Below, piece by piece: positions 4,787-55,424 of a DNA stretch of 64,000 nucleotides. The stretch comes from Escherichia coli. GTDB lineage: Bacteria > Pseudomonadota > Gammaproteobacteria > Enterobacterales > Enterobacteriaceae. The position numbers and the translations under genes were made by a program. Location of the stretch: assembly GCF_016903815.1 (NCBI RefSeq), contig NZ_CP069973.1; one strand, 5' to 3'. A model generated the notes under the pieces. It was not told where the DNA came from, ran no database searches, and was given only the letters and a program-made list of their open reading frames with translations. Every line of letters begins with the position of its first letter. Positions within the stretch are counted from its first letter, which is position 1.

Positions 4787-6265
4787 ATGTCGAAAAAATA
4801 CATCATAGGGATTGATGGTGGAAGTCAGAGCACAAAAGTGGTGATGTACGATCTGGAAGGTAATGTGGTTTGCGAAGGCAAAGGCTTATTGCAGCCGATG
4901 CACACGCCAGATGCCGATACCGCAGAACATCCTGACGACGATTTATGGGCATCATTATGCTTTGCCGGTCACGATTTGATGAGTCAGTTTGCCGGAAATA
5001 AAGAAGATATTGTCGGTATTGGTCTGGGATCCATCCGTTGCTGCCGTGCGTTATTGAAAGCCGATGGCACGCCAGCTGCGCCGTTGATTAGCTGGCAGGA
5101 TGCACGCGTTACACGCCCTTACGAACATACGAATCCTGACGTGGCATATGTCACCTCTTTTTCGGGTTATCTGACGCATCGCTTAACCGGCGAGTTTAAA
5201 GACAATATCGCCAACTATTTTGGTCAGTGGCCGGTGGATTATAAGACCTGGGCATGGAGTGAAGATGCCGCAGTCATGGAGAAGTTTAATATCCCCCGTC
5301 ATATGCTGTTTGATGTGCAAATGCCGGGCACTGTTCTTGGGCATATCACTCCTCAAGCCGCTCTGGCGACACATTTCCCGGCTGGGCTGCCGGTTGTTTG
5401 TACCACCAGTGATAAACCGGTAGAAGCACTGGGAGCCGGGTTACTGGATGATGAAACTGCGGTAATTTCTCTTGGCACTTACATCGCGTTGATGATGAAC
5501 GGCAAATTACTACCGAAAGATCCGGTAGCGTACTGGCCGATTATGTCTTCTATTCCGCAAACCTTGCTGTATGAAGGTTACGGTATTCGCAAAGGCATGT
5601 GGACGGTGAGCTGGCTACGCGACATGTTAGGCGAGTCGTTAATTCAGGATGCCAAAGCACAGGATCTTTCACCGGAAGATTTGCTCAACAAAAAAGCGTC
5701 TTGTGTGCCGCCAGGCTGTAATGGTCTGATGACGGTGCTGGACTGGCTGACCAATCCGTGGGAACCGTACAAACGCGGGATTATGATTGGCTTTGATTCC
5801 AGCATGGATTACGCATGGATATATCGTTCGATACTGGAAAGCGTGGCGCTGACGCTGAAGAACAATTACGACAATATGTGTAATGAAATGAATCACTTTG
5901 CAAAGCATGTGATCATTACTGGCGGCGGTTCGAACAGCGATCTGTTTATGCAGATTTTTGCCGACGTGTTCAACCTTCCGGCACGCCGTAACGCCATTAA
6001 TGGTTGTGCAAGCCTGGGGGCAGCGATTAATACGGCGGTAGGTCTGGGGCTATACCCGGATTACGCAACGGCTGTCGACAAAATGGTTCGCGTGAAAGAT
6101 ATCTTTATGCCTGTTGAGAGCAACGCCAAACGCTACAACGCGATGAATAAAGGCATTTTCAAGGAGTTAACCAAACATACTGATGTAATCCTGAAAAAAT
6201 CGTATGAAGTGATGCATGGGGAATTGGGGAATGCGGATTCGATCCAGAGCTGGTCGAATGCGTAA
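4787..6265 (+). CDS. ygcE: FGGY-family carbohydrate kinase
   Basis: 492-aa ORF with N-terminal IGIDGGSQSTK kinase motif; synteny. Confidence 0.85.
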   Translation: MSKKYIIGIDGGSQSTKVVMYDLEGNVVCEGKGLLQPMHTPDADTAEHPDDDLWASLCFAGHDLMSQFAGNKEDIVGIGLGSIRCCRALLKADGTPAAPLISWQDARVTRPYEHTNPDVAYVTSFSGYLTHRLTGEFKDNIANYFGQWPVDYKTWAWSEDAAVMEKFNIPRHMLFDVQMPGTVLGHITPQAALATHFPAGLPVVCTTSDKPVEALGAGLLDDETAVISLGTYIALMMNGKLLPKDPVAYWPIMSSIPQTLLYEGYGIRKGMWTVSWLRDMLGESLIQDAKAQDLSPEDLLNKKASCVPPGCNGLMTVLDWLTNPWEPYKRGIMIGFDSSMDYAWIYRSILESVALTLKNNYDNMCNEMNHFAKHVIITGGGSNSDLFMQIFADVFNLPARRNAINGCASLGAAINTAVGLGLYPDYATAVDKMVRVKDIFMPVESNAKRYNAMNKGIFKELTKHTDVILKKSYEVMHGELGNADSIQSWSNA

Positions 6266-6311
6266 GTGAGGAAGACCGGGCGGGAAACTGCCCGGCCTGA
6301 ACATACCTGAA

Positions 6312-6449
6312 TGGTTATCCCCGCTGGCGCGGGGAACATAAGTTCGACAACTTAAAAAATGATAACAAGTCCGGTTTATCCCCGCTGATGCAGGGAACAT
6401 AATAAAAACTTTAACTAGTTCGGTTTATCCCTGTTTTTACAAGGAATAT
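6312..6449 (-). CRISPR. Degenerate type I-E CRISPR remnant (3 decayed repeats)
   Basis: Repeat-like units at about 6312-6339, 6372-6400 and 6421-6449, each with mismatches or indels versus CGGTTTATCCCCGCTGGCGCGGGGAACTC; followed by an AT-rich leader-like stretch 6450-6900. Confidence 0.6.
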
Positions 6450-6902
6450 TAACTACACTCGATGTCTTTAGAATAAAAGACAATACGAATCGCACTTTAT
6501 CAATTTTCACTTAAAGTATGAACTGGATATCTTTATTCATAAGAACTATTCATCAACAGCGTATAGAGGCGATTATGTAAAACCACTCATTAGCCTCAAA
6601 ACAAAGACAAATTTCCAGATTTATTACTTAATCAATGAATAACAAGCTTAAAAAATACACTGTTATTCTAAAGAAAAAATTAACAGGCATTAATTAATAT
6701 TAAAAAAATAATATGTTAAAATTTCTTAACGGTTTAAGGATTATACAAATAACACTTTGATTAAATTTGATTTTTTGTATCGATAATTGTGAACTTCTCA
6801 TATATGGAGAGCTATTTTGAACATGAGGTGTTACGTGGATATGTTGCTTAATACGAGTACTGCTAATATAAAAACTTGAGAAAGAGATAACGGGTTATAT
6901 GG

Positions 6903-7236
6903 TGGTTTATTCCCGCTGGTGCGGGGAACTCATCAGTGATATCCAACATTGCGGAGCTAAACGCGGTTTATCCCCGCTGGCGCGGGGAACTCTAATATCC
7001 CTGGCGATAATCAACCGGCTTACTCGGTTTATCCCCGCTGGCGCGGGGAACTCGAGAGCGAGGGGAGATTCCGGCAGGGCGTGCACGGTTTATCCCCGCT
7101 GGCGCGGGGAACTCGCGGGTATGCTCCGCTCCGTGTTCGACAAACTCGGTTTATCCCCGCTGGCGCGGGGAACTCAAGGTCGCGGGGACGCCACGGGCAG
7201 TCAATGTCGGTTTATCCCCGCTGGCGCGGGGAACTC
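6903..7236 (-). CRISPR. Type I-E CRISPR array, 6 repeats and 5 spacers, transcribed on the minus strand
   Basis: 29-bp repeats at 6903-6931 (3 mismatches, leader-distal), 6964-6992, 7025-7053, 7086-7114, 7147-7175, 7208-7236; five 32-bp spacers at 6932-6963, 6993-7024, 7054-7085, 7115-7146, 7176-7207. Confidence 0.95.
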
Positions 7237-7440
7237 ACTAAACATAACCTATTATTAATTATTGATTTTTTAAGTCAGTCACAATCTACCAACTTAACAG
7301 AAACACACAAACAACACATCCATTATGTTAAAGAGCACTTAATTCATTGATTGAAAAGCCAAATATTTAAAGTAATTCTATACCGACTAAAATCCACCAA
7401 ACTCCGACGTAATAATTTTCACTCCAACGAAAAATTAACG
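7237..7440 (-). promoter_or_regulatory. CRISPR leader (AT-rich, contains the array promoter)
   Basis: AT-rich sequence directly abutting the perfect repeat at the higher-coordinate end; the degenerate repeat is at the opposite end. Confidence 0.6.
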
Positions 7441-7574
7441 CCACAGAATTTGTAGAAAATGATAATGATTAGTCCAGGATGGGCAAAATGGAGGTTTTTT
7501 AGAGGCGACAAAGAATATAAATGAGTAGAAGTCTTTACAGGTTCCACCCATTTATAACGCTTATAAATGTGTAA

Positions 7575-8246
7575 TCAGGCAATATTTAAATATTTATGTG
7601 TTTGCATCGACAAACGCCAATTACGCGCAATGCAGGTTTCAATGCACAAACGTGTGGCATCATCCTTTTGGCTAATCGGCTGCAGTGCAATGACTCGCGG
7701 TTTATCATCGGTCAGCGTCGCAAGCAATTCATCCAGTGCTTCGATATCACGTACGCGTCCAACTGGGTGTTTGATTTCGTTAGCTCGCTCCAGGGCTTGC
7801 GACAATACTTCATAACCACCACGCATATTTAGCTTTGGCGACACGGTGACCCAGGTATTCGGCGTACAACGCACTTCATGAGTACCGCTGGTTTCTATCT
7901 GGCAGCTAAAACCGTTCTTTTCGAGCAGGTCAGTCAGTGGCAGCAAATCATGAATGCAAGGCTCACCACCCGTAATCACCACATGCCGCGCGGTGTATCC
8001 CTGGCGACCAATGACAGCCAGCAAGTCTTCACTGCTCGCCGCCCCCCACTTATCACTCTCTTTGGTCTTCGCCAGAATGCTGAAAAGGGAGACTTCCCGA
8101 TCCTCAAGCTTTTCCCAGGTGTGTTTGGTGTCGCACCAGGCACAGCCAACCGGGCATCCCTGTAAACGAATAAAAATGGCGGGGACGCCGGTAAAGTAAC
8201 CCTCACCTTGCAGGGTCTGGAACATCTCGTTAATCGGGTACTGCAT
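7575..8246 (-). CDS. queE: 7-carboxy-7-deazaguanine synthase (radical SAM)
   Basis: 223-aa ORF with CxxxCxxC-type motif (GCPVGCAWCDT); synteny. Confidence 0.9.
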   Translation of the reverse strand: MQYPINEMFQTLQGEGYFTGVPAIFIRLQGCPVGCAWCDTKHTWEKLEDREVSLFSILAKTKESDKWGAASSEDLLAVIGRQGYTARHVVITGGEPCIHDLLPLTDLLEKNGFSCQIETSGTHEVRCTPNTWVTVSPKLNMRGGYEVLSQALERANEIKHPVGRVRDIEALDELLATLTDDKPRVIALQPISQKDDATRLCIETCIARNWRLSMQTHKYLNIA

Positions 8247-8539
8247 AGCATTCTCTGTGAAGTGGATAATTGTTAATTATTGCAGATCCTGCCACAACAA
8301 TCATGTCTTATTAACATTCTGTTACAGGCAGGTTTAAAGAAAAATGAGAAACAGATCGTTAATAATAAAAGGGAGTAACGTATTATGTCAGAAATAAATA
8401 AAGTAAAGGGATTTAATCATGTCAAAAACATTCACCAAAATTATACTTATTTTTTCTGTGTTCGTTTTTAATTATAACGAATCTCAAATTACCGATGCCG
8501 CCGTCAATTTATTTATCCAGCTTTAATGGGACATTTATA

Positions 8540-14245: not shown

Positions 14246-16480
14246 CTAACTCCCGTGCAACCGACGCGCGTCGATAACGTCTGGCACCTGATTGAGTTTA
14301 CCCAGCACGCGGCCCAGCACTTGCAGATTGTAAATCTCAATGGTCATGTCGATAGTCGCCAGTTGCTGTTTAGTGTCGCTACGGCTGGCAACGCCAAGCA
14401 CGTTCACCTTCTCGTTGGCAAGAATGGTCGTGATATCACGCAATAATCCACTGCGATCATTGGCCATCACCCGGACCACCAGCGAATATCCGGCGGAGTA
14501 GCTCTCACCCCATACCGCGTCAACAATGCGTTCTGGCGCATGGGAGCGCAGTTCCGCCAGTTGTTCGCAATCGGCGCGGTGTACTGAAATACCGCGTCCC
14601 TGGGTAATGAAGCCGACAATCTCATCTCCAGGAATCGGCTGACAGCAGCGCGCGATGTGGTGCATCAGGTTGCCGACACCTTCTACCACCACACGACCGT
14701 TATCTTTACTGCGGTTTTGCGGCGTATAGCTTTTTTGCTGAAGTTGCTTCAGCGCGGCGGCATCCTGCTCTTCGGCACTCGGCTTATTAAATTGCGATTG
14801 CAGGAAGTTCACCATCTGATTGAGACGGATATCCCCGCCACCAATTGCCGCCAGCAACTCGTCGACATCATTGAAGTTGTAACGCGGCAGCAGATGTTTT
14901 TCTGCTTCTTTCAGGCTGATCCCCAGATGTTCCAGCTCGTCGTCAAGGATTTGCCGCCCAGCCAGAATGTTTTTGTCACGGTCCTGTTTACGGAACCAGG
15001 CGTGAATTTTCGAACGCCCACGGCTGGTTGTGACGTAACCGAGGTTTGGGTTTAACCAGTCACGGCTGGGGTTCGGCTGTTTCTGGGTGATAATTTCAAT
15101 CTGGTCGCCCATCTGCAGCTGGTAGGTGAACGGCACAATGCGCCCGCCAATTTTTGCCCCGATGCAGCGGTGTCCGACATCACTGTGGATGTGGTAAGCG
15201 AAGTCCAGCGGTGTTGATCCCGCAGGCAAATCAACGACGTCACCTTTCGGCGTAAAGACGTACACCCGGTCGTCAAAGACCTGGCTGCGTACTTCGTCGA
15301 GCATTTCGCCGGAATCAGCCATCTCTTCCTGCCACGCAATCAGTTTACGCAGCCAGGCAATTCGGTCTTCATGTCCCGAACGTGCGCCGCCAGCTGCCGC
15401 GCCTTCTTTATATTTCCAGTGCGCAGCAACACCCAACTCTGCATCTTCATGCATCTGTTTGGTGCGGATTTGGATCTCTACGGTTTTGCCACCTGGTCCC
15501 AGAACCACGGTATGAATAGACTGATAACCGTTTGGTTTCGGGTTAGCGACGTAATCGTCAAACTCATCCGGCAGGTGGCGATAGTGAGTGTGCACTATCC
15601 CCAGTGCGGCATAACAATCCTGTAAACGCTCGGCGACAATACGTACCGCACGCACATCAAACAGCTCATCGAAGGCGAGGTTCTTTTTCTGCATTTTGCG
15701 CCAGATGCTGTAGATGTGTTTCGGACGACCATACACTTCAGCTTTAACGCCTTCAGCTTTCATCTCAGCGCGCAGATGACCGACAAACTCTTCGATATAG
15801 TGTTCGCGGTCGAGACGGCGTTCATGCAACAGTTTTGCGATGCGTTTGTATTCGGTCGGGTGGAGATAACGGAAGCAGTAATCTTCCAGCTCCCATTTCA
15901 GTTGTCCAATCCCAAGACGGTTCGCCAACGGCGCGTAGATATTGGTGCACTCTTTTGCCGCCAGTACGCGTTCATCTTCCGGCGCGTCTTTTACTTCGCG
16001 CAGATGAGCAATACGCTCTGCCAGTTTAATGACCACGCAGCGAAAATCATCGACCATCGCCAATAACATCCGGCGAACGTTATCGACCTGTTCGGAGGAA
16101 ACAGAATCGGTATGCGTCGCTTTCAGCTGGCGGATCGCCGCCATATCACGCACGCCGTGAATAAGGTTAACGACCGACTTACCGACGCACTCACGCAGCA
16201 CATCTTCGCTGACTACGTTGGCATCCGCCAGAGGGAACAGCAGCGCCGCCCGCAGCGTGTCAATGTCCATACTTAATGTCGAGAGGATCTCCACCATCTC
16301 AACACCACGCCACAATAACAGACTGGCATCCGGATGTCCCTGCGTCTGTTGCAGACAATACGCCCAGGTTTCGGCTAAGCACTCACACGACTTCTGGCTG
16401 GTAATACCCAGACTTGCGATCCATTTTTCCGGATCAAATTCACCAGCCTTATTGATATGTGCACTTCTTACCGCAACCAT
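14246..16480 (-). CDS. relA: GTP pyrophosphokinase, (p)ppGpp synthetase I
   Basis: 744-aa ORF; synteny. Confidence 0.95.
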   Translation of the reverse strand: MVAVRSAHINKAGEFDPEKWIASLGITSQKSCECLAETWAYCLQQTQGHPDASLLLWRGVEMVEILSTLSMDIDTLRAALLFPLADANVVSEDVLRECVGKSVVNLIHGVRDMAAIRQLKATHTDSVSSEQVDNVRRMLLAMVDDFRCVVIKLAERIAHLREVKDAPEDERVLAAKECTNIYAPLANRLGIGQLKWELEDYCFRYLHPTEYKRIAKLLHERRLDREHYIEEFVGHLRAEMKAEGVKAEVYGRPKHIYSIWRKMQKKNLAFDELFDVRAVRIVAERLQDCYAALGIVHTHYRHLPDEFDDYVANPKPNGYQSIHTVVLGPGGKTVEIQIRTKQMHEDAELGVAAHWKYKEGAAAGGARSGHEDRIAWLRKLIAWQEEMADSGEMLDEVRSQVFDDRVYVFTPKGDVVDLPAGSTPLDFAYHIHSDVGHRCIGAKIGGRIVPFTYQLQMGDQIEIITQKQPNPSRDWLNPNLGYVTTSRGRSKIHAWFRKQDRDKNILAGRQILDDELEHLGISLKEAEKHLLPRYNFNDVDELLAAIGGGDIRLNQMVNFLQSQFNKPSAEEQDAAALKQLQQKSYTPQNRSKDNGRVVVEGVGNLMHHIARCCQPIPGDEIVGFITQGRGISVHRADCEQLAELRSHAPERIVDAVWGESYSAGYSLVVRVMANDRSGLLRDITTILANEKVNVLGVASRSDTKQQLATIDMTIEIYNLQVLGRVLGKLNQVPDVIDARRLHGS

Positions 16481-26941: not shown

Positions 26942-26984
26942 AAAGCAACCTCAATAAGAAAAACTGCCGCGAAGGATAGCAGGA

Positions 26985-27352
26985 ATAAAAAAAGGGAGCA
27001 CTGTATTCACAGTGCTCCCGGTTCGTTTCGCAGCATTCCAGCTACTTTTGTTGCTCCCTGCTCATCCTTGACAACTTTTCCTCTGGCCTTGCGGCCAATC
27101 GTTCATCCTGAACTATTGCTTCCTGCTCACACCACCCCGATGTGATACTTCATCCTGAAGTGTCCCTGGCCTTCCTGACCCACCGAATCATCCTGACCGG
27201 TTCTCATTCTCCATCCTGGAGGTGTCCTTTAACGCGTCCTGCGTCATCCTCTTCGCTTCATCCAGAAGCCTTTCCCTGAAACACCATCCTGGTGTGTCCT
27301 TCAGAAGTGTCATCATCCTGATGTTCACTTCGTTGTCTGACTCCCTGTCGAC
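26985..27352 (-). ncRNA. csrB: CsrB sRNA (CsrA-sequestering, many GGA motifs)
   Basis: Minus strand starts GTCGACAGGGAGTCAGACAACGAAG (RC of 27328-27352), carries about 18 CAGGA(U)G-type repeats (seen as catcctg on plus) and ends in hairpin GGGAGCACTGTGAATACAGTGCTCCC plus U-run near 26985. Confidence 0.93.
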
Positions 27353-28175: not shown

Positions 28176-29024
28176 ATGTCTTCTTATGCAAACCATCAGG
28201 CACTTGCGGGCCTGACTCTTGGAAAATCAACCGATTACCGGGATACCTATGACGCCAGCCTACTGCAAGGCGTTCCGCGTAGTCTGAATCGCGATCCGCT
28301 GGGTCTGAAAGCGGATAACCTGCCTTTTCACGGTACGGATATCTGGACGCTATATGAACTTTCCTGGCTGAATGCGAAAGGTTTGCCGCAGGTCGCCGTC
28401 GGTCATGTTGAACTTGATTACACCAGCGCAAATCTGATTGAGTCGAAGAGTTTTAAGCTCTATCTCAACAGTTTTAACCAGACGCGTTTTAATAACTGGG
28501 ATGAGGTGCGCCAGACGCTGGAGCGCGACTTAAGCACTTGCGCTCAGGGTAAGATTAGCGTGGCGTTATATCGTCTTGATGAACTGGAAGGCCAGCCGAT
28601 AGGTCATTTTAATGGCACTTGCATTGATGACCAGGATATCACTATCGATAACTATGAATTCACTACTGACTATCTGGAGAATGCCACCTGTGGTGAAAAA
28701 GTAGTGGAAGAGACGCTTGTCAGCCACCTGCTGAAATCAAACTGCCTGATCACCCATCAACCAGATTGGGGTTCGATCCAAATTCAGTATCGTGGACGCC
28801 AAATTGACAGAGAAAAACTGCTGCGTTACCTGGTCTCATTCCGTCATCACAACGAGTTCCACGAACAGTGCGTGGAACGCATCTTTAATGACCTGTTACG
28901 CTTCTGCCAGCCAGAAAAATTGAGCGTTTACGCACGTTATACCCGTCGTGGCGGTCTGGACATTAACCCGTGGCGCAGTAATAGCGATTTTGTCCCATCG
29001 ACCACAAGACTGGTTCGGCAATAA
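28176..29024 (+). CDS. queF: NADPH-dependent 7-cyano-7-deazaguanine reductase
   Basis: 282-aa ORF; synteny. Confidence 0.9.
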
Positions 29025-29135
29025 ATTTTTTCTCAATTTTGCGTGCTGGATTCACGCAGAAGGTTGTGAAAGGTCATCAGGCAGGGCTATTGTAATCAAA
29101 GGGAATGACGATATTCGTCCCATAAGGAGTTTTTC

Positions 29136-30500
29136 TTGATTACACATATTAGCCCGCTTGGCTCCATGGATATGTTGTCGCAGCTGGAAGTGGATATGCT
29201 TAAACGCACCGCCAGCAGCGACCTCTATCAACTGTTTCGCAACTGTTCACTTGCCGTACTGAACTCCGGTAGTTTGACCGATAACAGCAAAGAATTGCTG
29301 TCTCGTTTTGAAAATTTCGATATTAACGTCTTGCGCCGTGAACGCGGCGTAAAGCTGGAACTGATTAATCCCCCGGAAGAGGCTTTTGTCGATGGGCGAA
29401 TTATTCGCGCTTTGCAGGCCAACTTGTTCGCGGTCCTGCGTGACATTCTCTTCGTTTACGGGCAAATCCATAACACCGTTCGTTTTCCCAACCTGAATCT
29501 CGACAACTCCGTCCACATCACTAACCTGGTCTTTTCCATCTTGCGTAACGCTCGCGCGCTGCATGTGGGTGAAGCGCCAAATATGGTGGTCTGCTGGGGC
29601 GGTCACTCAATTAACGAAAACGAGTATTTGTATGCCCGTCGCGTCGGAAACCAGCTGGGCCTGCGTGAGCTGAATATCTGCACCGGCTGTGGTCCGGGAG
29701 CGATGGAAGCGCCGATGAAAGGTGCTGCGGTCGGACACGCGCAGCAGCGTTACAAAGACAGTCGTTTTATTGGTATGACAGAGCCGTCGATTATCGCCGC
29801 TGAACCGCCTAACCCGCTGGTCAACGAATTGATCATCATGCCAGATATCGAAAAACGTCTGGAAGCGTTTGTCCGTATCGCTCACGGTATCATTATCTTC
29901 CCTGGCGGTGTGGGTACGGCAGAAGAGTTGTTGTATTTGCTGGGAATTTTAATGAACCCGGCCAACAAAGATCAGGTTTTACCATTGATCCTCACCGGCC
30001 CGAAAGAGAGCGCCGACTACTTCCGCGTACTGGACGAGTTTGTCGTACATACGCTGGGCGAAAACGCGCGCCGCCATTACCGCATCATCATTGATGACGC
30101 CGCTGAAGTCGCTCGTCAGATGAAAAAATCGATGCCGCTGGTGAAAGAAAATCGCCGCGACACTGGTGACGCTTACAGCTTTAACTGGTCAATGCGCATT
30201 GCACCAGATTTGCAAATGCCGTTTGAGCCGTCTCACGAGAATATGGCTAATCTGAAGCTTTACCCGGATCAACCTGTTGAAGTGCTGGCTGCCGACCTGC
30301 GCCGTGCGTTCTCCGGTATTGTGGCGGGTAACGTAAAAGAAGTCGGTATTCGCGCCATTGAAGAGTTTGGTCCTTACAAAATCAACGGCGATAAAGAGAT
30401 TATGCGTCGTATGGACGACCTGCTACAGGGTTTTGTTGCCCAGCATCGTATGAAGTTGCCAGGCTCAGCCTACATCCCTTGCTACGAAATCTGCACGTAA
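29136..30500 (+). CDS. ppnN: nucleotide 5'-monophosphate nucleosidase (LOG-like)
   Basis: 454-aa ORF (ygdH); synteny. Confidence 0.88.
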
Positions 30501-36648: not shown

Positions 36649-37647
36649 TTATTTTTTTCTTATGCGCTTAATTAATTTCATTCCTACTTTAACTGTTTTT
36701 TTGACTGGTCTTTCTTCGATCGCGCTTAACATCATTTCGAACGCTTTTTCTGCCCAGGCATTTTCATCCTGCTGCATTGACCAGACATTGTTGGCGAGAA
36801 ATCCCAGCATAGGATGTTCATCGAAAGTGCCAATATTGATTTCTGGCGGTACAGCGCCAAGACGGTCGCGAATCGCGCGGACAGCGCCTTCAAGCACAGG
36901 CAAAGACGAGGCGATAAATGCCTGCGGACATCCCTGCTCTTCAATGAGTTTTTCCATAATGACATAGCCGCCTTCCGGAGTATTTACCGGACCTTCCCGC
37001 ACCCAATCGCGATGGGTAATCCCTTTTTTTGCCAACGCATTCAAATAACCTGTCAGACGATCGCTGATACTCGGCAAACCGGCATCTCCCAGCAAAAACC
37101 ATACTGGAGCCTGCCCGGCCTCAAGAATATTTTGCGTCAGCTTTTCTCCGCCAGAAATATTATTACTCTCTACCAATGCGTTATCGGTATATTTAAAATC
37201 ACGATCGAGTAAAACCATGGGCTTACGAATTTTGCGTAAATGATGCTGCTGATTTTCCAGCGTCGAAGGAACAATAAAAAGACCATCTACATTTCGTGCG
37301 ATAAATGCTTTCGTCAATTTATTTTCATAGTCAACATCATCATAAGTGCAACTGATTGTAAGTTGATATCCGGAACGTCGACAGCGTTGTTCGAGTTTTT
37401 CTGCCAGCGTAGCAAAAAAGACGTTGGATATGTTGGGAACAATCAACCCTAATGTATCAGTTTTGTTAAGCTTAAGGCTGCGAGCGGAATGATTAATGAT
37501 ATAACCATAGCGTTCAACATATTCATTGATACGCGTTTGGGTTTTGACGCTGATTCGATATTGTTCCGCTTTTCCATTTAGCACCAGTCGCACGGTCGTA
37601 ACCGATAAATTCAGGTCGCTGGCTATCTGCTCTACTGTTTTAGCCAT
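36649..37647 (-). CDS. LacI/GalR-family transcriptional regulator
   Basis: 332-aa ORF with N-terminal HTH (MAKTVEQIASDLNLSVTTVRLVLNG...) and periplasmic-binding-like effector domain. Confidence 0.85.
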   Translation of the reverse strand: MAKTVEQIASDLNLSVTTVRLVLNGKAEQYRISVKTQTRINEYVERYGYIINHSARSLKLNKTDTLGLIVPNISNVFFATLAEKLEQRCRRSGYQLTISCTYDDVDYENKLTKAFIARNVDGLFIVPSTLENQQHHLRKIRKPMVLLDRDFKYTDNALVESNNISGGEKLTQNILEAGQAPVWFLLGDAGLPSISDRLTGYLNALAKKGITHRDWVREGPVNTPEGGYVIMEKLIEEQGCPQAFIASSLPVLEGAVRAIRDRLGAVPPEINIGTFDEHPMLGFLANNVWSMQQDENAWAEKAFEMMLSAIEERPVKKTVKVGMKLIKRIRKK

Positions 37648-37711
37648 AGGTATTTCCCAGTTAACATCCAGACGTCAAATCACAATCATAAAAGTATTTT
37701 CAACTTTTGTC

Positions 37712-39292
37712 TTATTGCATCAGTTGGTTAACCGCCTGTTGTTGCTCCCAAAGCGTCAGGTAAACCCGGTATTTACGCTCTAAAAATTCACGGCGTTGTG
37801 GATTTACCTGAATAATCTCTCCGGCTTCAACCATTGCTTTACACGCAGATGTAAAATCCCCCCATGCTCCGCTGGCAACAGCGCCGCTAATTGCTGCGCC
37901 CAACGTAACGGCATCTTCTTCTTGCATCAGGTGGATATCGCAACCTGTCACGTCTGCATATTCGCGTAGCCATAAAGGGTTGTGCGTTGCACCACCACAT
38001 AATGTTAATCGGGTAATGGTATGCCCATTTTCCCGCAGAGTTTCAATAATATGTCTGGTGCCAAAGGCTATTGCCTGTAAAGTCGCAAGATAAAGTCGCG
38101 CGAGCTGATTTTCACCACGCTCCAGTGTTAAGCCATAAACACTGCCTCTGGCATCGGGCCGCGCTCGTGGCGAACGGTTGCCGTGATGATCGGCAAGCAC
38201 ATGTAAATTTCGTGTGGGTTCTGACTCGTTAGCTTCAAGGGCTGCTACCCATTCATTAATCAGTTGAATCGGATGACATCCGCGTTGCTGCGCCTTGTGA
38301 AAAAGATTTGCGCTTGCCCCTGACTCCTGAAGCGTCCACTCCACCAGCGCCCCTGCGGCGCTTTGCCCGCCTTCGGTTAGCCAGTAATTTGGCAACATGG
38401 CCGACCAGTATGGCCCCCAGACGCCAGGGGTGAATATCTCTTTTTCACTACACAGCATATGGCAGTTCGACGTTCCGCTTATCAATGCCAGCGTTCCTAA
38501 TGGGTGAGCGCCAGCCAGCGCCACGCCACCGGCATGGGCATCAATCAAGCCACTGGCCACGATAACATTAGTCGTTAATCCTAACTCTTCAGCAGCTGTG
38601 GCGGTTAACGTTCCCACGGCAGCGCCAGGCGGAAGAATGTCGGCAGGAATTCTTTCAAGCATATCGGTCAGGTCTATCGATTCCAGTAAGCTATGGCTAA
38701 AGCGTTGCTCATGAGCTAGATAATTCCATTTACACGTTAGCGTGCATAATCCCGCGACGTCTCGCCCTGTTGCTTTCCAGACCAGAAAATCCGCCAGATC
38801 GAAAAAGCGATGAGCGGCCTGCCAGGTTTGCGGTAGATGCGTCTTCAACCAACGTAACTTTGGTAACTCCATCTCGACGCTCACTTCGCCGCCAACGTAG
38901 CGCAATGCGGGATCCTTCATTGCGTTAATCTGCGCCGTCTCGACAGTTGCACGATGATCCATCCACATAATAATGTCGTGATTCGCAGATCCACCGGACG
39001 AAACCGCTAAACCCTGGCCTTGTTCATCAAGAACAACCAGCGAGCAGGTAGCGTCAAAACCCAGTGAGCGAATTGCGGAAATGGGGATGCCTGCCAAAGC
39101 TGTCGCCTCTTTCACCGTTTTACAAACTTGTTGCCAGATCTCTGCCGAAGACTGTTCGACACGCTCGCCGCCAGGGCGAAACTGGGAGACGGGCGCAGTA
39201 GCGAATGCCAGCCTGTGGCCACTGGCACTGTAAACGCCTGCCCTGACACTGGCCGATCCGACATCGACACCGAGAAAATAACCGTTGTGCAT
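37712..39292 (-). CDS. FGGY-family pentulose-type kinase (candidate D-ribulokinase)
   Basis: ORF 37712..39412; start set at MHNGYFLGVDVGSASVRAGVY with AGGGAGG RBS (527 aa); DHHGNRSP motif typical of the ribulokinase/pentulose-kinase branch. Confidence 0.8.
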   Translation of the reverse strand: MHNGYFLGVDVGSASVRAGVYSASGHRLAFATAPVSQFRPGGERVEQSSAEIWQQVCKTVKEATALAGIPISAIRSLGFDATCSLVVLDEQGQGLAVSSGGSANHDIIMWMDHRATVETAQINAMKDPALRYVGGEVSVEMELPKLRWLKTHLPQTWQAAHRFFDLADFLVWKATGRDVAGLCTLTCKWNYLAHEQRFSHSLLESIDLTDMLERIPADILPPGAAVGTLTATAAEELGLTTNVIVASGLIDAHAGGVALAGAHPLGTLALISGTSNCHMLCSEKEIFTPGVWGPYWSAMLPNYWLTEGGQSAAGALVEWTLQESGASANLFHKAQQRGCHPIQLINEWVAALEANESEPTRNLHVLADHHGNRSPRARPDARGSVYGLTLERGENQLARLYLATLQAIAFGTRHIIETLRENGHTITRLTLCGGATHNPLWLREYADVTGCDIHLMQEEDAVTLGAAISGAVASGAWGDFTSACKAMVEAGEIIQVNPQRREFLERKYRVYLTLWEQQQAVNQLMQ

Positions 39293-39344
39293 AAAGCCTC
39301 CCTGACGCTGGAGATAACGGGGATGAAAATTCATCCCCAATTTT

Positions 39345-40295
39345 TTATTTCTTACCGAATGGGTGCAGGAGTTTGTCGATTTCTGGCGTGTTAATATTCT
39401 CGGCATTAACAAATTTCACGGGAATATCGATCTCTTTTTCAACGGCTTGCCCCGAAAGGGCCGCGTTCAACGTTTTGATCCCTTGATAGCCAATCTGGTA
39501 TGCATCCTGAACAACAAAGCCCTGAATGACGCCGTTCTTCAGGAAGTTAATAATCGCTTCCGTACTATCAAAACCAATGACCTTCACCTTACCTTTCAGA
39601 TTCTGGCTATCAATGGCATTCGCCACCCCGAGCGTTGAACCTTCATTGGTGCCATAGATCCCAGCAAGATCGGGATTGGCCTGAATCATATCGATAGTTT
39701 TATCCATCGCTTTTTGCGGGTCACCATCGCTGTACTGAACGGGTAAGACTTTAATGTCAGGATATTTTTCTTTCATACGCTCCATGAAGCCTTCCGAGCG
39801 TTCAATAGCGGAAGATGTTCCTGCAACGTGCGCGATAATCCCAACTTTCCCTTTATTATTTACCTGCGAGGCTAAGGCATCAGCTGCCTGAGCACCTGCT
39901 TTACGGTTATTGGTGGCGACAAAACTCACCGGAATGTCTGAATTGATGCCTGAATCAAAGGTCACCACTTTGATACCGCGTGAATTTGCCGTTTCTACCA
40001 GTGGGGCGAGCGCATTCGCGTCGAGGGCTGCCAGAAGCAAGCCATTCGGTTTCTGCGCCATCGCATTTTCGACTAACTGAATTTGCTCGGCTATTTGCGT
40101 TTCATCAGCCGGGCCAACATAGCTGGTTTTATCCCCCAACTCTTTAGCCGCAGCTTCAGTCCCCATTTTTACGGTTTGCCAGAATTCATGTTGGAAACCT
40201 TTACTAACAACCGGAAGATTTAAATCCTTCGCCAGTGCGCTGGAACTTACGCAAGCCAGCAGAGATAACGCATAGATAAAATGCCTGGTTTTCAT
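39345..40295 (-). CDS. periplasmic sugar-binding protein (RbsB-like) of the ABC transporter
   Basis: ORF 39345..40418; start set at MKTRHFIYALSLLACVSSSALA (signal peptide) giving 316 aa. Confidence 0.8.
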   Translation of the reverse strand: MKTRHFIYALSLLACVSSSALAKDLNLPVVSKGFQHEFWQTVKMGTEAAAKELGDKTSYVGPADETQIAEQIQLVENAMAQKPNGLLLAALDANALAPLVETANSRGIKVVTFDSGINSDIPVSFVATNNRKAGAQAADALASQVNNKGKVGIIAHVAGTSSAIERSEGFMERMKEKYPDIKVLPVQYSDGDPQKAMDKTIDMIQANPDLAGIYGTNEGSTLGVANAIDSQNLKGKVKVIGFDSTEAIINFLKNGVIQGFVVQDAYQIGYQGIKTLNAALSGQAVEKEIDIPVKFVNAENINTPEIDKLLHPFGKK

Positions 40296-40368
40296 TGTTG
40301 TACTCCGTTCTGAGTGAATCACCCTTAACGTCAGGGCAGTTGTTTCCCGATAAAACAGGGAGCCTAAG

Positions 40369-41352
40369 TCAACGAATCTTTTTGCGTAATGTATCGAGGT
40401 AAACGGCAGCGACCACAACGACGCCCATCGCGACCATTTGCCAGAACTGGGAGACGCCCATTAAATTGAGGCCATTTTTCAGTACACTCATAATGAAAGC
40501 GCCAATGATTGTGCCGCCAATAGTGCCAATACCGCCCATTAAGCTGGTTCCGCCAATCACTACCGCGGCAATAGCTTCCAGTTCATAACCCACACCTACC
40601 GTCGGTTGTCCGGAGTTGAGACGAGATGCCAGAATGACACCTGCAATCCCCGTTAATAATCCACAGAAGGCATAGACGAAAATTTTCACGCGCTGAACTT
40701 TAATACCAGAAAGATGAGCAGCAACTTCATTACTGCCTACGGCATAGACATAGCGACCAATGACGGTTTTCTTCAGGATGTAAGCGCCGACAAGCGCTAC
40801 AATGACAAGGTAGAAAACAGGATAAGGCAGCACATCAAATAAGCGTCCCTGAGCGAGCGTTTTGAACATCGGGTAATCGGCAAAATAGATGGCGCGCCCG
40901 TCGGTCATCACCATATTGATACCTCTGACGGACATCATCAGGCCCAAGGTAGCGATAAATGGTGGAATGGTCATTTTAGTGACCAACAAACCATTCACAT
41001 AGCCGCACATTCCACCGGCTAAAACACCGGCAATAATACACACTGGCAGCGGCAGGCCCAGTGTGGCGCAAATCCCCACGGCGACACCAGAAAAAGCCAC
41101 CACGGAGCCCAATGAAAGATCGATGCCCGCGGTAATAATGACGAAAGTTACCCCAATGGCCATAATGCCGATAACCGACGTTTGCAGAGCAATCGTCATG
41201 ATATTTTCGGTATTAAAGAAAAAGGGAGAGCTGAAACTAAAAAACAGCACTAATATAATTAAGCTAAAAAGAGGCGCAAGGCGCATCAAAAGTTCTTTAT
41301 TTATCTTTATTTTCTTATTATTACTGTCTGGAGAGGTTACAGAGATAGTCAT
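40369..41352 (-). CDS. sugar ABC transporter permease (RbsC-like)
   Basis: 327-aa hydrophobic ORF with multiple TM segments. Confidence 0.8.
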   Translation of the reverse strand: MTISVTSPDSNNKKIKINKELLMRLAPLFSLIILVLFFSFSSPFFFNTENIMTIALQTSVIGIMAIGVTFVIITAGIDLSLGSVVAFSGVAVGICATLGLPLPVCIIAGVLAGGMCGYVNGLLVTKMTIPPFIATLGLMMSVRGINMVMTDGRAIYFADYPMFKTLAQGRLFDVLPYPVFYLVIVALVGAYILKKTVIGRYVYAVGSNEVAAHLSGIKVQRVKIFVYAFCGLLTGIAGVILASRLNSGQPTVGVGYELEAIAAVVIGGTSLMGGIGTIGGTIIGAFIMSVLKNGLNLMGVSQFWQMVAMGVVVVAAVYLDTLRKKIR

Positions 41353-41355
41353 AAT

Positions 41356-42870
41356 TTAATCCTCTAACGTCGCGTATTGCATAATTTTTTCTTGTGTCGC
41401 TTCTTTTGCGCTAAGTTCGCCGGTAATTCGACCACTGCGCATCACTAAAATACGGTCGCACATTCCTAACACCTCAGGCAATTCAGAGGAGATCATGATG
41501 ATTGATTTCCCTTTTGCCACCAGGCGATTCATTAACTCATAGATTTCCAGTTTGGCGCCAACATCAATGCCGCGAGTGGGTTCATCGAAGATTAAAATAT
41601 CAGTATCTTTACACACCCAACGTGCAATTATAATTTTCTGCTGGTTTCCTCCACTTAGATTTAATGCCGCCTGTTCAAGATTTGGCGTTTTAATCCTTAA
41701 CGCTTTTACCTGTTCCTCACTGGTTTGTTGGCAACGACGCGAATCGACATTCCCAAAACGATCGGAATATTCAGGGTAGTTTCCTAACATAATATTTCGT
41801 TCAACAGATAAATTCAGCGCCAGCCCTTCTTTTTTGCGGTCTTCCGTCAGGTAACTAATTCCCTGCTGAATAGCATCCGAAATATCTTTAATAACGGTTT
41901 CCTTACCATTTAATTTTAGCGTTCCGCTGTCAATAGAATCCGCACCAAAAATCGCACGCGCAAGTTCAGTACGCCCCGCGCCCATCAGTCCGGCAAAGCC
42001 GAGGATCTCGCCACGATAAAGCGTAAAATTAATATCGTTCAGGACGCCTTTGCGCGTCAGTCCGTTTACCTCCAGAACCGGAATCCGCTGCTGCAAGGCC
42101 TCGCGGCGGGGATAGATATTCCCTAAATCGCGACCAACCATCATGGCAATCAGATCGCTGATTTTTACGCACTCATAATCCACCGTGCTGATGTACTGAC
42201 CATCACGCATTACAGTCGCACGGTCGGCAATTAGCGCCAACTCTTCCAGACGGTGGGAGATATAAACAATGCCGGTCCCCTGCTCTTTCAATAACCGGGT
42301 GACGCGAAATAAGCTTTCAATTTCAGTTTCTGTTAACGCCGCAGTAGGTTCATCCATAATGAGAATCCTGGCGTTAACTGAAATGGCCTTGGCAATTTCT
42401 ACCATCTGCTGCTGAGCTACCGTAAGGTCGGCAACCAGAGTATCTGGTTTGATCGCCAAATTTAATTTTTGCAAAATTTCAATCGTCGCCTGGCGTTGCT
42501 GTTTTTCATCCAGACGCCAGCGATTTTTTTTACAAAACTCCCTGCCGATAAAAATATTTTCTTCTACTGTAAGCTCGGGAAATAAATTAAATTCCTGGTG
42601 AATAATAGTAATACCTACGTTTTGCGCACTTAACGGATCAGAAAATGAGACTGGTTTATCTTCAAAAATTATTTCGCCTTCATCAGGTTGATAAACCCCC
42701 GACAAAATTTTCATTAAGGTAGATTTTCCTGCACCATTTTCACCTAATAATGCATGAACCTCGCCCCGGCGTAGGGAAAATTGCACGTCATTAAGCGCCA
42801 ACACTCCAGGAAAGCGTTTGGTGATATGCTTCATTTGCAAAAATGTTTCGGACATTGCAGCTTTCCTCAA
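41356..42870 (-). CDS. sugar ABC transporter ATP-binding protein with two NBDs (RbsA/CUT2-like)
   Basis: 504-aa ORF with Walker A GENGAGKST, second P-loop GLMGAGRTE and signature LSGGNQQK. Confidence 0.85.
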   Translation of the reverse strand: MRKAAMSETFLQMKHITKRFPGVLALNDVQFSLRRGEVHALLGENGAGKSTLMKILSGVYQPDEGEIIFEDKPVSFSDPLSAQNVGITIIHQEFNLFPELTVEENIFIGREFCKKNRWRLDEKQQRQATIEILQKLNLAIKPDTLVADLTVAQQQMVEIAKAISVNARILIMDEPTAALTETEIESLFRVTRLLKEQGTGIVYISHRLEELALIADRATVMRDGQYISTVDYECVKISDLIAMMVGRDLGNIYPRREALQQRIPVLEVNGLTRKGVLNDINFTLYRGEILGFAGLMGAGRTELARAIFGADSIDSGTLKLNGKETVIKDISDAIQQGISYLTEDRKKEGLALNLSVERNIMLGNYPEYSDRFGNVDSRRCQQTSEEQVKALRIKTPNLEQAALNLSGGNQQKIIIARWVCKDTDILIFDEPTRGIDVGAKLEIYELMNRLVAKGKSIIMISSELPEVLGMCDRILVMRSGRITGELSAKEATQEKIMQYATLED

Positions 42871-50436: not shown

Positions 50437-50642
50437 ACTTCCTGAGCCGGAACGAAAAGTTTTATCGGAATGCGTGTTCTGGTGAACTTTTGGCTTACGG
50501 TTGTGATGTTGTGTTGTTGTGTTTGCAATTGGTCTGCGATTCAGACCATGGTAGCAAAGCTACCTTTTTTCACTTCCTGTACATTTACCCTGTCTGTCCA
50601 TAGTGATTAATGTAGCACCGCCTAATTGCGGTGCTTTTTTTT
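50437..50642 (+). ncRNA. gcvB: GcvB sRNA
   Basis: Starts ACTTCCTGAGCCGGAACGAAAAG, contains the G/U-rich region GTTGTGATGTTGTGTTGTTGTGTTTG and ends in hairpin GCACCGCCTAATTGCGGTGC plus U-run; divergent from gcvA. Confidence 0.9.
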
Positions 50643-53635: not shown

Positions 53636-53735
53636 TGCCTGATGCGCTACGCTTATCAGGCCTACATAACTCCTGCAATATTTTGGATTTGCATGATTTG
53701 TAGGCCGGATAAGGCGTTCACGCCGCATCCGGCAT
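53636..53735. repeat. BIME: two REP units in opposite orientation
   Basis: gcctgatgcgctacgcttatcaggcctac and aggccggataaggcgttcacgccgcatccggcatg; flanked by near-identical direct repeats gaggttatccctcaccct / gaggttacccctcaccct. Confidence 0.75.
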
Positions 53736-55127: not shown

Positions 55128-55204
<77 letters not shown>

Positions 55205-55237
55205 ATTAAAATTTGATGAAGTAAAGCAGTACGGTGA

Positions 55238-55314
<77 letters not shown>

Positions 55315-55347
55315 ATCAAATTTGATGAAGTAAAAGCAGTACGGTGA

Positions 55348-55424
<77 letters not shown>

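Follow-up and report, generated by a model that had tools for sequence, protein, structure and literature searches.

The CRISPR-II locus of E. coli, its separation from the cas genes, the fossil CRISPR2.2 array, and the variants of cas-E and of the repeat have reportedly been described by Díez-Villaseñor, Almendros, Mojica and colleagues, and by Touchon and Rocha. The type I-E system of E. coli is published as a split system, in which CRISPR-I lies between iap and cysH together with the cas genes, and CRISPR-II lies between ygcE and ygcF (PMC3903273). CRISPR2.3 is defined by its position between ygcE and ygcF, with leader 2.3 on the ygcF side (PMC3903273), and CRISPR2.2 by three repeats with two invariable spacers about 0.5 kb from CRISPR2.3 (PMC4489801; PMC3903273). 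Leaders have been assigned only to CRISPR2.1 and CRISPR2.3 (PMC3903273; PMC3737337). The consensus of the E. coli type 2, or I-E, repeat is CGGTTTATCCCCGCTGRCGCGGGGAACWC (PMC3737337), and a cas-E1/EO variant of the cas operon has been described by Almendros et al. and Díez-Villaseñor et al. (PMC3903273; PMC3737337). The array considered here, found in a stretch of 64,000 bases of E. coli DNA (the window), is an ordinary and already known locus: it is the published CRISPR-II, with CRISPR2.2 and CRISPR2.3 between ygcE and ygcF.

The CRISPR2.3 array occupies positions 6903–7236 on the minus strand and comprises six 29-nt type I-E repeats and five 32-nt spacers. It was seen in three ways, by direct reading, by a repeat search, and by Tandem Repeats Finder (period 61, score 191), and RefSeq annotates a CRISPR at the same place in identical genomes. 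Final repeat coordinates were taken from a Hamming scan that included degenerate repeats. Five repeats are intact, each reading CGGTTTATCCCCGCTGGCGCGGGGAACTC on the plus strand at an exact 61-nt period; they lie at 6964–6992, 7025–7053, 7086–7114, 7147–7175, and, proximal to the leader, 7208–7236. Five identical 29-mers with this exact spacing cannot be a product of chance. The sixth, leader-distal repeat at 6903–6931 terminates the array and is degenerate, with 3 mismatches to the consensus. On the plus strand each unit appears as the reverse complement of the E. coli I-E repeat GAGTTCCCCGCGCCAGCGGGGATAAACCG, so the array is read on the minus strand, and in the RNA sense its repeat is the ‘CRISPR-T’ variant. 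The 29-nt repeat agrees with the published consensus (five exact copies and one with 3 mismatches), and the spacers are unique 32-mers (33 nt with the PAM-derived G) that recur at a 61-nt period. The preliminary description of this DNA had given the same repeat and spacer numbers and the same limits, and all methods agree with it; our own parse reproduces its five spacer sequences letter for letter, its assignment to subtype I-E accords with a repeat equal to the published consensus, and the degenerate terminal repeat that it mentioned is the leader-distal copy.

The repeat RNA is predicted to fold into the canonical hairpin, with a 7-bp stem and a 4-nt loop (−15.1 kcal/mol, z = −3.6), a predicted structure of the kind that Cas6e recognises. 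In the terminal repeat the predicted hairpin is reduced to 5 bp, and with so weak a hairpin the maturation of the oldest crRNA may be impaired. The GC content of the array is 62%, against 50% for the whole window. Rfam searches, run over the whole window at the gathering threshold and over 6200–7650 at E ≤ 1, returned no CRISPR or other RNA family at the locus.

On its left the array is flanked by ygcE (4787–6265, plus strand), which encodes an FGGY-family sugar kinase and marks the left boundary of CRISPR-II, and on its right by queE (ygcF; 7575–8246, minus strand). Both are open reading frames that are annotated in an identical genome. The array thus sits between ygcE and queE with its leader toward queE, in keeping with the definition of CRISPR-II. 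Leader 2.3 (7237–7574, minus strand; 31% GC) fills the entire intergenic gap from the array to the stop codon of queE. It is homologous over its full length to the CRISPR-II leader of K-12, with a local score of 514 where shuffled sequences reach at most 35, so that the AT-rich leader seen on the queE side in the preliminary description is confirmed as such. Published work assigns promoter and integration signals to this stretch (PMC3903273; PMC10011333). In K-12 transcription is reported to start about 95 nt upstream (PMC10011333), and the portion of the leader that matches the K-12 start region is conserved in the window. The IHF site of the K-12 leader, which directs integration by Cas1–Cas2, is reported in the interval −9 to −35 (PMC10011333). 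An IHF-like sequence, AATCAATAATTAA, with one mismatch to WATCAANNNNTTR, lies on the minus strand at 7255–7267, that is, at leader positions −31 to −19 and within the K-12 interval; from this motif match we infer that IHF would bind here. A consensus promoter scan gave 7 sites where 4.6 are expected. A minus-strand match at 7278–7251 was discarded as a candidate promoter, as it falls within the leader's initial 60 bp, a region that according to the literature is promoter-free.

No cas gene is annotated anywhere in the 64,000-base window, as the preliminary description had correctly remarked. It had gone on to call the locus orphan, while allowing that cas genes lying just outside the window would overturn this view. 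Over its full 64,000 bases the window is identical, with 0 mismatches, to E. coli strain 7/2 (NZ_CP023820.1, 3187464–3251463), which carries between cysH and iap an intact operon of cas3, casA, casB, cas7e, cas5e, cas6e, cas1e, and cas2e together with a second array. The end of cas3 lies 18,480 bp from the array and 11,577 bp to the left of window position 1, and none of the eight cas open reading frames contains an internal stop. A type I-E operon and a CRISPR2.1 array are present in all five of the identical-array genomes checked. Besides strain 7/2 these are EE72d (cattle, New Zealand), NMBU-W10C18 (surface water, Norway), WCHEC96200 (human, China), and B20105 (estuary, Ireland), each with the same array and with the same Cas protein accessions as strain 7/2; no cas gene is flagged as a pseudogene in any of the five. 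The check for cas genes elsewhere in the genome, which the preliminary description had itself proposed, thus yields an intact eight-gene operon in strain 7/2 and in four further genomes. The cognate cas3–casABCDE–cas1–cas2 operon lies outside the window, and the array does not belong among those whose genome lacks cognate cas genes. Judged by the identity of the window to complete genomes, on which its link to cas rests, the array is not orphan, and that label has to be given up.

The cas operon of strain 7/2 differs unevenly from that of K-12: Cas1 and Cas2 are 81–84% identical, whereas Cascade and Cas3 are only 22–31% identical. In contrast, its cas3 shares 94.8% DNA identity with cas3 of O157:H7. 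These values together identify the operon as the E1/EO variant, and a cas3 of the strain 7/2 type is found in 2,777 of 5,426 complete genomes. In strain 7/2 the repeats of CRISPR2.3 end in ...AACTC (CRISPR-T) and those of the array adjacent to cas in ...AACAC (CRISPR-A). WCHEC96200 is an ST405 strain of phylogroup D (PMC5762679), and the window may therefore be taken to be of the ST405 lineage type.

Beyond the array, toward ygcE, lies a decayed remnant of three repeats at 6311–6449, separated by 32 nt and 20 nt and likewise on the minus strand; a decayed second array had been recognised in the preliminary description, and its three degenerate repeats all fall within these limits. Repeat 1 (6311–6339) adjoins ygcE and has 5 mismatches when aligned without gaps, which largely reflect a one-base deletion that truncates the repeat and a changed end. 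It reads ATGGTTATCC...AACAT on the plus strand, has a predicted 7-bp hairpin, and is the former terminal repeat at the distal end of the locus. It is followed by the ‘invariable’ 32-nt spacer (6340–6371), which is identical in K-12 and occurs in 4,062 of 5,426 E. coli genomes, in 4,048 of them at 99% identity or more, with a median of one site per genome; a second site for this spacer is absent from E. coli genomes. Repeat 2 (6372–6400) has 5 mismatches and keeps its predicted hairpin with one G–U pair. Repeat 3 (6421–6449), though mismatched at 11 of 29 positions, retains a predicted 7-bp hairpin through two double changes from C–G to U–A. Between these two repeats, the 20-nt pseudo-spacer (6401–6420) is part of a duplicated block: 6355–6400 and 6404–6449 share 74% identity, and the similarity takes in 17 nt that lie upstream of the repeat, which suggests that the third repeat arose by a 49-bp tandem duplication rather than by spacer acquisition.

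In its repeats, its invariable spacers, and its distance from CRISPR2.3 the remnant fits the definition of CRISPR2.2. It is present in 4,554 of 5,426 genomes, at 95% identity or more in 4,465 of these, and, being nearly invariant across E. coli, it records nothing specific to the lineage of the window. Its spacers gave only chance-level matches to phages (E ≥ 2). Outside E. coli the only match to CRISPR2.2 is in E. whittamii, in a solo-repeat form that affords no covariation data for the hairpins.

The remnant is separated from CRISPR2.3 by an AT-rich stretch of 453 bp (6450–6902; 27% GC) that is about 98% identical to K-12. The preliminary description had seen in it a leader-like sequence belonging to the remnant. 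Composition and position agree with this suggestion, but similarity to a leader does not: local alignment to leader 2.3, of the window and of K-12, and to both types of leader 2.1 gave scores of 17–30, against shuffle maxima of 29–32. With scores inside the shuffle range, the stretch was rejected as a decayed leader, and CRISPR2.2 is accordingly not credited with a leader of its own. Loci of the CRISPR2.2-3 and solo-repeat forms lack the AT-rich stretch. In O166:H15 JNE21-003 the truncated ygcE-proximal repeat (ATGGTTATCC...) opens directly into a single array, and all that is left of the collapsed locus in O4:H5 CU532-9 and E. whittamii is a solo truncated repeat and the leader. By these comparisons, repeat–repeat recombination evidently remodels the CRISPR-II locus.

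A target was found for one of the five CRISPR2.3 spacers. Against 50,697 phage genomes none of them gave a match at E ≤ 1, and a search of 72,556 plasmids matched only a 4.9-Mb sequence that is classed as a plasmid and contains the array itself. A scan of IMG/VR that left every sixth base free recovered a target for spacer 3 only, and none for spacers 4 and 5. In metagenomes spacer 5 matched only the same E. coli array, and spacer 4 had no match in 100,044 species genomes. Spacers 1, 2, 4, and 5 thus lack a detectable target in the collections searched. The comparison of the spacers with phage, plasmid, and prophage sequences suggested in the preliminary description therefore succeeded for spacer 3, with a match to a prophage tail-fibre gene, and gave nothing for the other four.

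E. coli GF43 harbours a prophage, with lambda-like head genes and P2-like baseplate, sheath, and tube genes, whose tail-fibre gene matches spacer 3 at 31 of 32 bases; a viral contig in IMG/VR carries the same variant of the target, again matching at 31 of 32 bases. The single mismatch falls at position 20 of the crRNA, which is not part of the seed. In both phage sequences, which are independent of each other, the protospacer has a 5′-ATG PAM on the crRNA-sense strand, as expected of an AWG (AAG/ATG) PAM. ATG, written there as CAT, is an acquisition motif of the E1/EO variant and was unobserved for K-12 (PMC3737337), so that the PAM fits the E1/EO operon found in strain 7/2. The 451 bp around the protospacer occur as prophage in only 2 of 5,426 genomes. 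The genomes that bear spacer 3 are without this prophage segment, and thus there is no self-targeting. Spacers against the same 451-bp segment are carried by 25 other genomes. In RM9088 a type I-E spacer with an ATG PAM lies in CRISPR2.1, and in QA-1986 630 another, also with an ATG PAM, lies near the leader of CRISPR2.3. About 23 genomes, B7A among them, carry beside infA a type I-F spacer directed at a protospacer that is followed by the PAM GG and overlaps the protospacer of spacer 3 by 19 nt. Four arrays from different E. coli lineages, three of type I-E and one of type I-F, have thus independently taken spacers from the tail-fibre gene of a rare temperate phage.

The order of the spacers bears on the history of the array. 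They are numbered from the leader-distal end, and letters denote spacers absent from the window array. Spacer 1, the oldest (6932–6963), is common to other lineages, including an ST38 strain; spacer 2 (6993–7024) is common to several other lineages, and spacer 3 (7054–7085), the one with the tail-fibre target, to others. Spacer 4 (7115–7146) and spacer 5, the newest and leader-proximal one (7176–7207), occur among the parsed arrays only in the window type and in strain 50579417; all five are on the minus strand. The window array reads 1,2,3,4,5. Strain 50579417 has the order 1,a,b,c,d,2,3,4,5, strains Z0117EC0056 and 266917_2 both have 1,a,b,...,2,3,x,y, the ST38 strain has 1,a,b,...,3,x,y, and K-12 has none of the window's spacers. 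In the comparison of the order of five arrays, spacer sharing is polar: leader-distal spacers are common to lineages, and differences lie at the leader end. Such leader-proximal polarity has been stated for E. coli (PMC3903273). The window array differs from its nearest relative only by an internal deletion, with no spacer gained, and it has the look of a longer array that was shortened internally.

Of 5,426 genomes, 327 contain one or more of the five spacers, and the identical locus is found in about 55 genomes from several continents and hosts. With the array invariant across continents and hosts, recent spacer uptake is not evident. The claim in the preliminary description that the spacers record past invaders of this lineage can be kept for the narrowly distributed spacers 4 and 5; it cannot for spacers 1–3, which other lineages share, or for those of the remnant, which are invariant in the species. 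Its view that the spacers are useful for strain typing stands, as the exact string is a marker of the ST405-type lineage, and the comparison that it recommended with K-12 and other strains returned no spacer in common with K-12 and spacers 1–3 in other lineages.

The region is very probably a CRISPR-II locus of the ST405/phylogroup D type, in which a live CRISPR2.3 and a fossil CRISPR2.2 are served by an E1/EO cas operon 18.5 kb away. By analogy with K-12 and O157:H7 we infer transcription, processing by Cas6e, interference by Cascade and Cas3, and IHF-assisted integration (PMC10011333; PMC3737337). As in the work on those strains, a promoter in the leader would transcribe the array on the minus strand. 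Cas6e would cleave every repeat at the 3′ base of the 7-bp hairpin, giving 61-nt crRNAs in which a 32-nt spacer is preceded by the 8-nt handle AUAAACCG and followed by a 21-nt hairpin handle. The crRNAs would be loaded by Cascade, DNA with an AAG/ATG-type PAM would be recognised, and Cas3 would be recruited. Cas1–Cas2, aided by bending of the leader by IHF, would insert new spacers at the junction of leader and repeat, and internal spacers would be deleted by repeat–repeat recombination. As in K-12, H-NS probably keeps expression low. As far as comparison of genomes allows, the array appears to be static in this lineage and to have lost internal spacers relative to its relatives.

Other readings of the locus deserve consideration. 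The repeats are palindromic and have no match in Rfam, which might suggest a REP/BIME-like family or a chance pattern rather than a CRISPR. However, their exact I-E consensus, the exact 61-nt period, the unique 32-mer spacers, the K-12-homologous leader, the RefSeq annotation of the site as a CRISPR, and a spacer with a PAM-flanked phage match leave this reading no probability at all. A second possibility is that the array is truly orphan, an inert relic in a genome that has lost its I-E cas genes as have BL21 and phylogroup B2. The 64-kb window does contain no cas gene, and cas-less E. coli with CRISPR-II remnants exist (solo-repeat forms; BL21, PMC3737337), but the cas-less forms examined had a collapsed array and not five spacers. 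Moreover, given a window without one mismatch to strain 7/2 over 64,000 bases, and an intact operon with identical protein accessions 18.5 kb from the array in five of five identical-array genomes, an orphan array is most improbable.

It is harder to decide whether an array that has its cas genes is also in use. It may be silent, a historical record and typing marker that confers no immunity under ordinary conditions, with the cas operon repressed and no uptake of spacers. In favour of this are the identity of the array in about 55 genomes of a globally spread clone, the internal deletion as its sole difference from the nearest relative, and the lack of a target for four of five spacers in phage, plasmid, IMG/VR, metagenome, and species-genome collections. 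Indeed the E. coli system is silenced by H-NS and inactive in laboratory conditions, and its spacers mostly have no known phage match (PMC10011333). On the other hand, the eight cas reading frames are intact in strain 7/2 and free of pseudogene flags in five genomes, which argues for retained function, and the leader and its integration signals are conserved. The prophage targeted by spacer 3 occurs in 2 of 5,426 genomes and in none that bear the spacer, as would be expected if interference worked, although this is no proof of it. The E1 variant is, in addition, far less studied than that of K-12 (PMC3903273). On balance a silent array is a serious possibility, to which we give somewhat less than an even chance. 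For CRISPR2.2, all three repeats keep the predicted hairpin and two of them the handle AUAAACCG, and the fossil might not be inert: it could furnish one canonical crRNA, with the same spacer in some 4,000 genomes, that might act in housekeeping or regulation instead of immunity. Such a crRNA would stem from transcription running on out of CRISPR2.3 or starting at a promoter within the AT-rich stretch. This reading seems to us very unlikely, and we prefer to regard the region as a live CRISPR2.3 beside a fossil CRISPR2.2.

The practical value of the spacer string is modest: it marks the ST405 type, a clone that has kept a static array. The locus also illustrates that an E. coli array without cas genes within tens of kilobases is not necessarily orphan. 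Because the I-E system of this species is normally split between two loci about 20 kb apart, a lack of cas genes nearby is no proof of that condition.

Among the closest known systems, that of K-12 resembles the locus in its layout. CRISPR-II of K-12 has the same flanking genes in the same orientation; identity is about 98% from the ygcE stop codon to the first CRISPR2.3 repeat, a stretch that takes in the remnant and the AT-rich 0.45 kb; the leaders of the two CRISPR2.3 arrays are homologous over their full length; and the K-12 cas operon has the same relative position beyond ygcE as in strain 7/2. In contrast, K-12 shares no spacer with the window array, and its terminal repeat has 1 mismatch where that of the window has 3, that is, two extra mutations. 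The repeat combination is also reversed, CRISPR2.3 of K-12 ending in ...AACAC (CRISPR-A) and that of the window in ...AACTC, and the partner cas operon of K-12 is of the other variant, as its distant Cascade and Cas3 attest.

The O157:H7 type, with its cas-EO/cas-E1 operon, is similar in its machinery. Besides the close similarity of cas3, it has A-type CRISPR2.1 repeats as in strain 7/2, and the CAT/ATG motif of this variant is that of the spacer-3 protospacer. Its spacer content differs from that of the window array, and the CRISPR2.1 repeats of the ST405 type, unlike those of O157:H7, show an extra CGATTT variant at their other end. The collapsed or cas-less forms of CRISPR-II, in O4:H5 CU532-9 and E. 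whittamii and in BL21, represent the same locus, with the truncated ygcE-proximal repeat and a related leader. Whereas these loci are without spacers, or lie in a genome without cas-E genes, the type represented by the window has both five spacers and an intact cas operon.

A single 350-bp stretch of a phage tail-fibre gene, found in a prophage of E. coli GF43 (positions 14863-15211 of that region, L003), has matches to four CRISPR spacers that come independently from separate E. coli lineages; the sites given with this stretch are 13903-13934 of L011, a further region outside the window, and spacer 3 of the window's array (7054-7085). Three of the four are type I-E spacers, belonging to the window's lineage, to CRISPR2.1 of RM9088 and to CRISPR2.3 of QA-1986 630, and an ATG PAM is present at all three protospacers. 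The fourth is a type I-F spacer of the B7A/TW10573 group, whose protospacer has a GG PAM and overlaps that of the window's spacer by 19 nt. The prophage segment carrying the tail-fibre stretch was found in only two of 5,426 complete genomes.

Two open reading frames that run through the array on the plus strand, 6899-7258 (119 aa) and 7081-7350 (89 aa), have no RefSeq annotation and were rejected as artefacts of the repeats. In one genome, that of strain 98210 (NZ_CP173528.1, match H1 to window 6250-7600), an IS1 transposase gene lies inside the CRISPR region between ygcE and queE in a sequence that is otherwise identical; IS elements are reported to insert sporadically at the CRISPR-II locus, and this is one example. 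Another match, H31, is a 4.9-Mb PLSDB "plasmid" record (NZ_CP134663.1) that is evidently an E. coli chromosome, because the CRISPR-II array with spacer 1 is present in it. The record can yield false "plasmid" matches for chromosomal queries.

In the decayed remnant CRISPR2.2 (6311-6449, minus strand), a 7-bp hairpin of the Cas6e type is still predicted in all three repeats. The most decayed of these, with mismatches at 11 of 29 positions, keeps its hairpin through two double changes from C-G to U-A and one G-U pair. On a rough estimate (p about 0.3), it would not be unlikely for this repeat to keep the hairpin by chance. Covariation data for these hairpins were sought outside E. coli, and none were found.

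Elsewhere in the window, the known RNA genes are CsrB (26984-27343, minus strand), GcvB (50437-50642, plus), the ES036/CssrF sRNA (53658-53700, minus) and a trio of tandem tRNA genes annotated as tRNA-Met (55128-55421, plus), all ordinary for that part of the E. coli chromosome. The fucose locus (36649-42855) carries five genes between fucA and fucI: three form a sugar ABC transporter, and the other two encode a LacI-family regulator and an FGGY-family kinase. The gene at this position in K-12, fucP, is not among the annotations of that interval. The small gene yqcG (8385-8526), which in K-12 encodes a cell-envelope stress response protein, has in the window's lineage the annotation of a pseudogene with a frameshift.

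Beyond the window, the identical genomes carry a copy of IS1397 between ygcP and ygcQ (L001 coordinates 28826-30174) and a Hok/Gef toxin gene (L001, 21082-21234) between cas3 and cysH, a position occupied in K-12 by the small RNA sokX. The CRISPR repeats also differ from those of K-12. In the window, the repeats of CRISPR2.3 (6903-7236) end in AACTC, and those of the cas-adjacent CRISPR2.1 of the window's type (L001, 11713-12229) end in AACAC and mostly start with CGATTT. The lineage's E1/EO integrase and its Cas6e would therefore have two repeat variants to serve. In K-12 (L002, 2885-3464 and 29014-29408) the endings are swapped, with AACTC in CRISPR2.1 and AACAC in CRISPR2.3.
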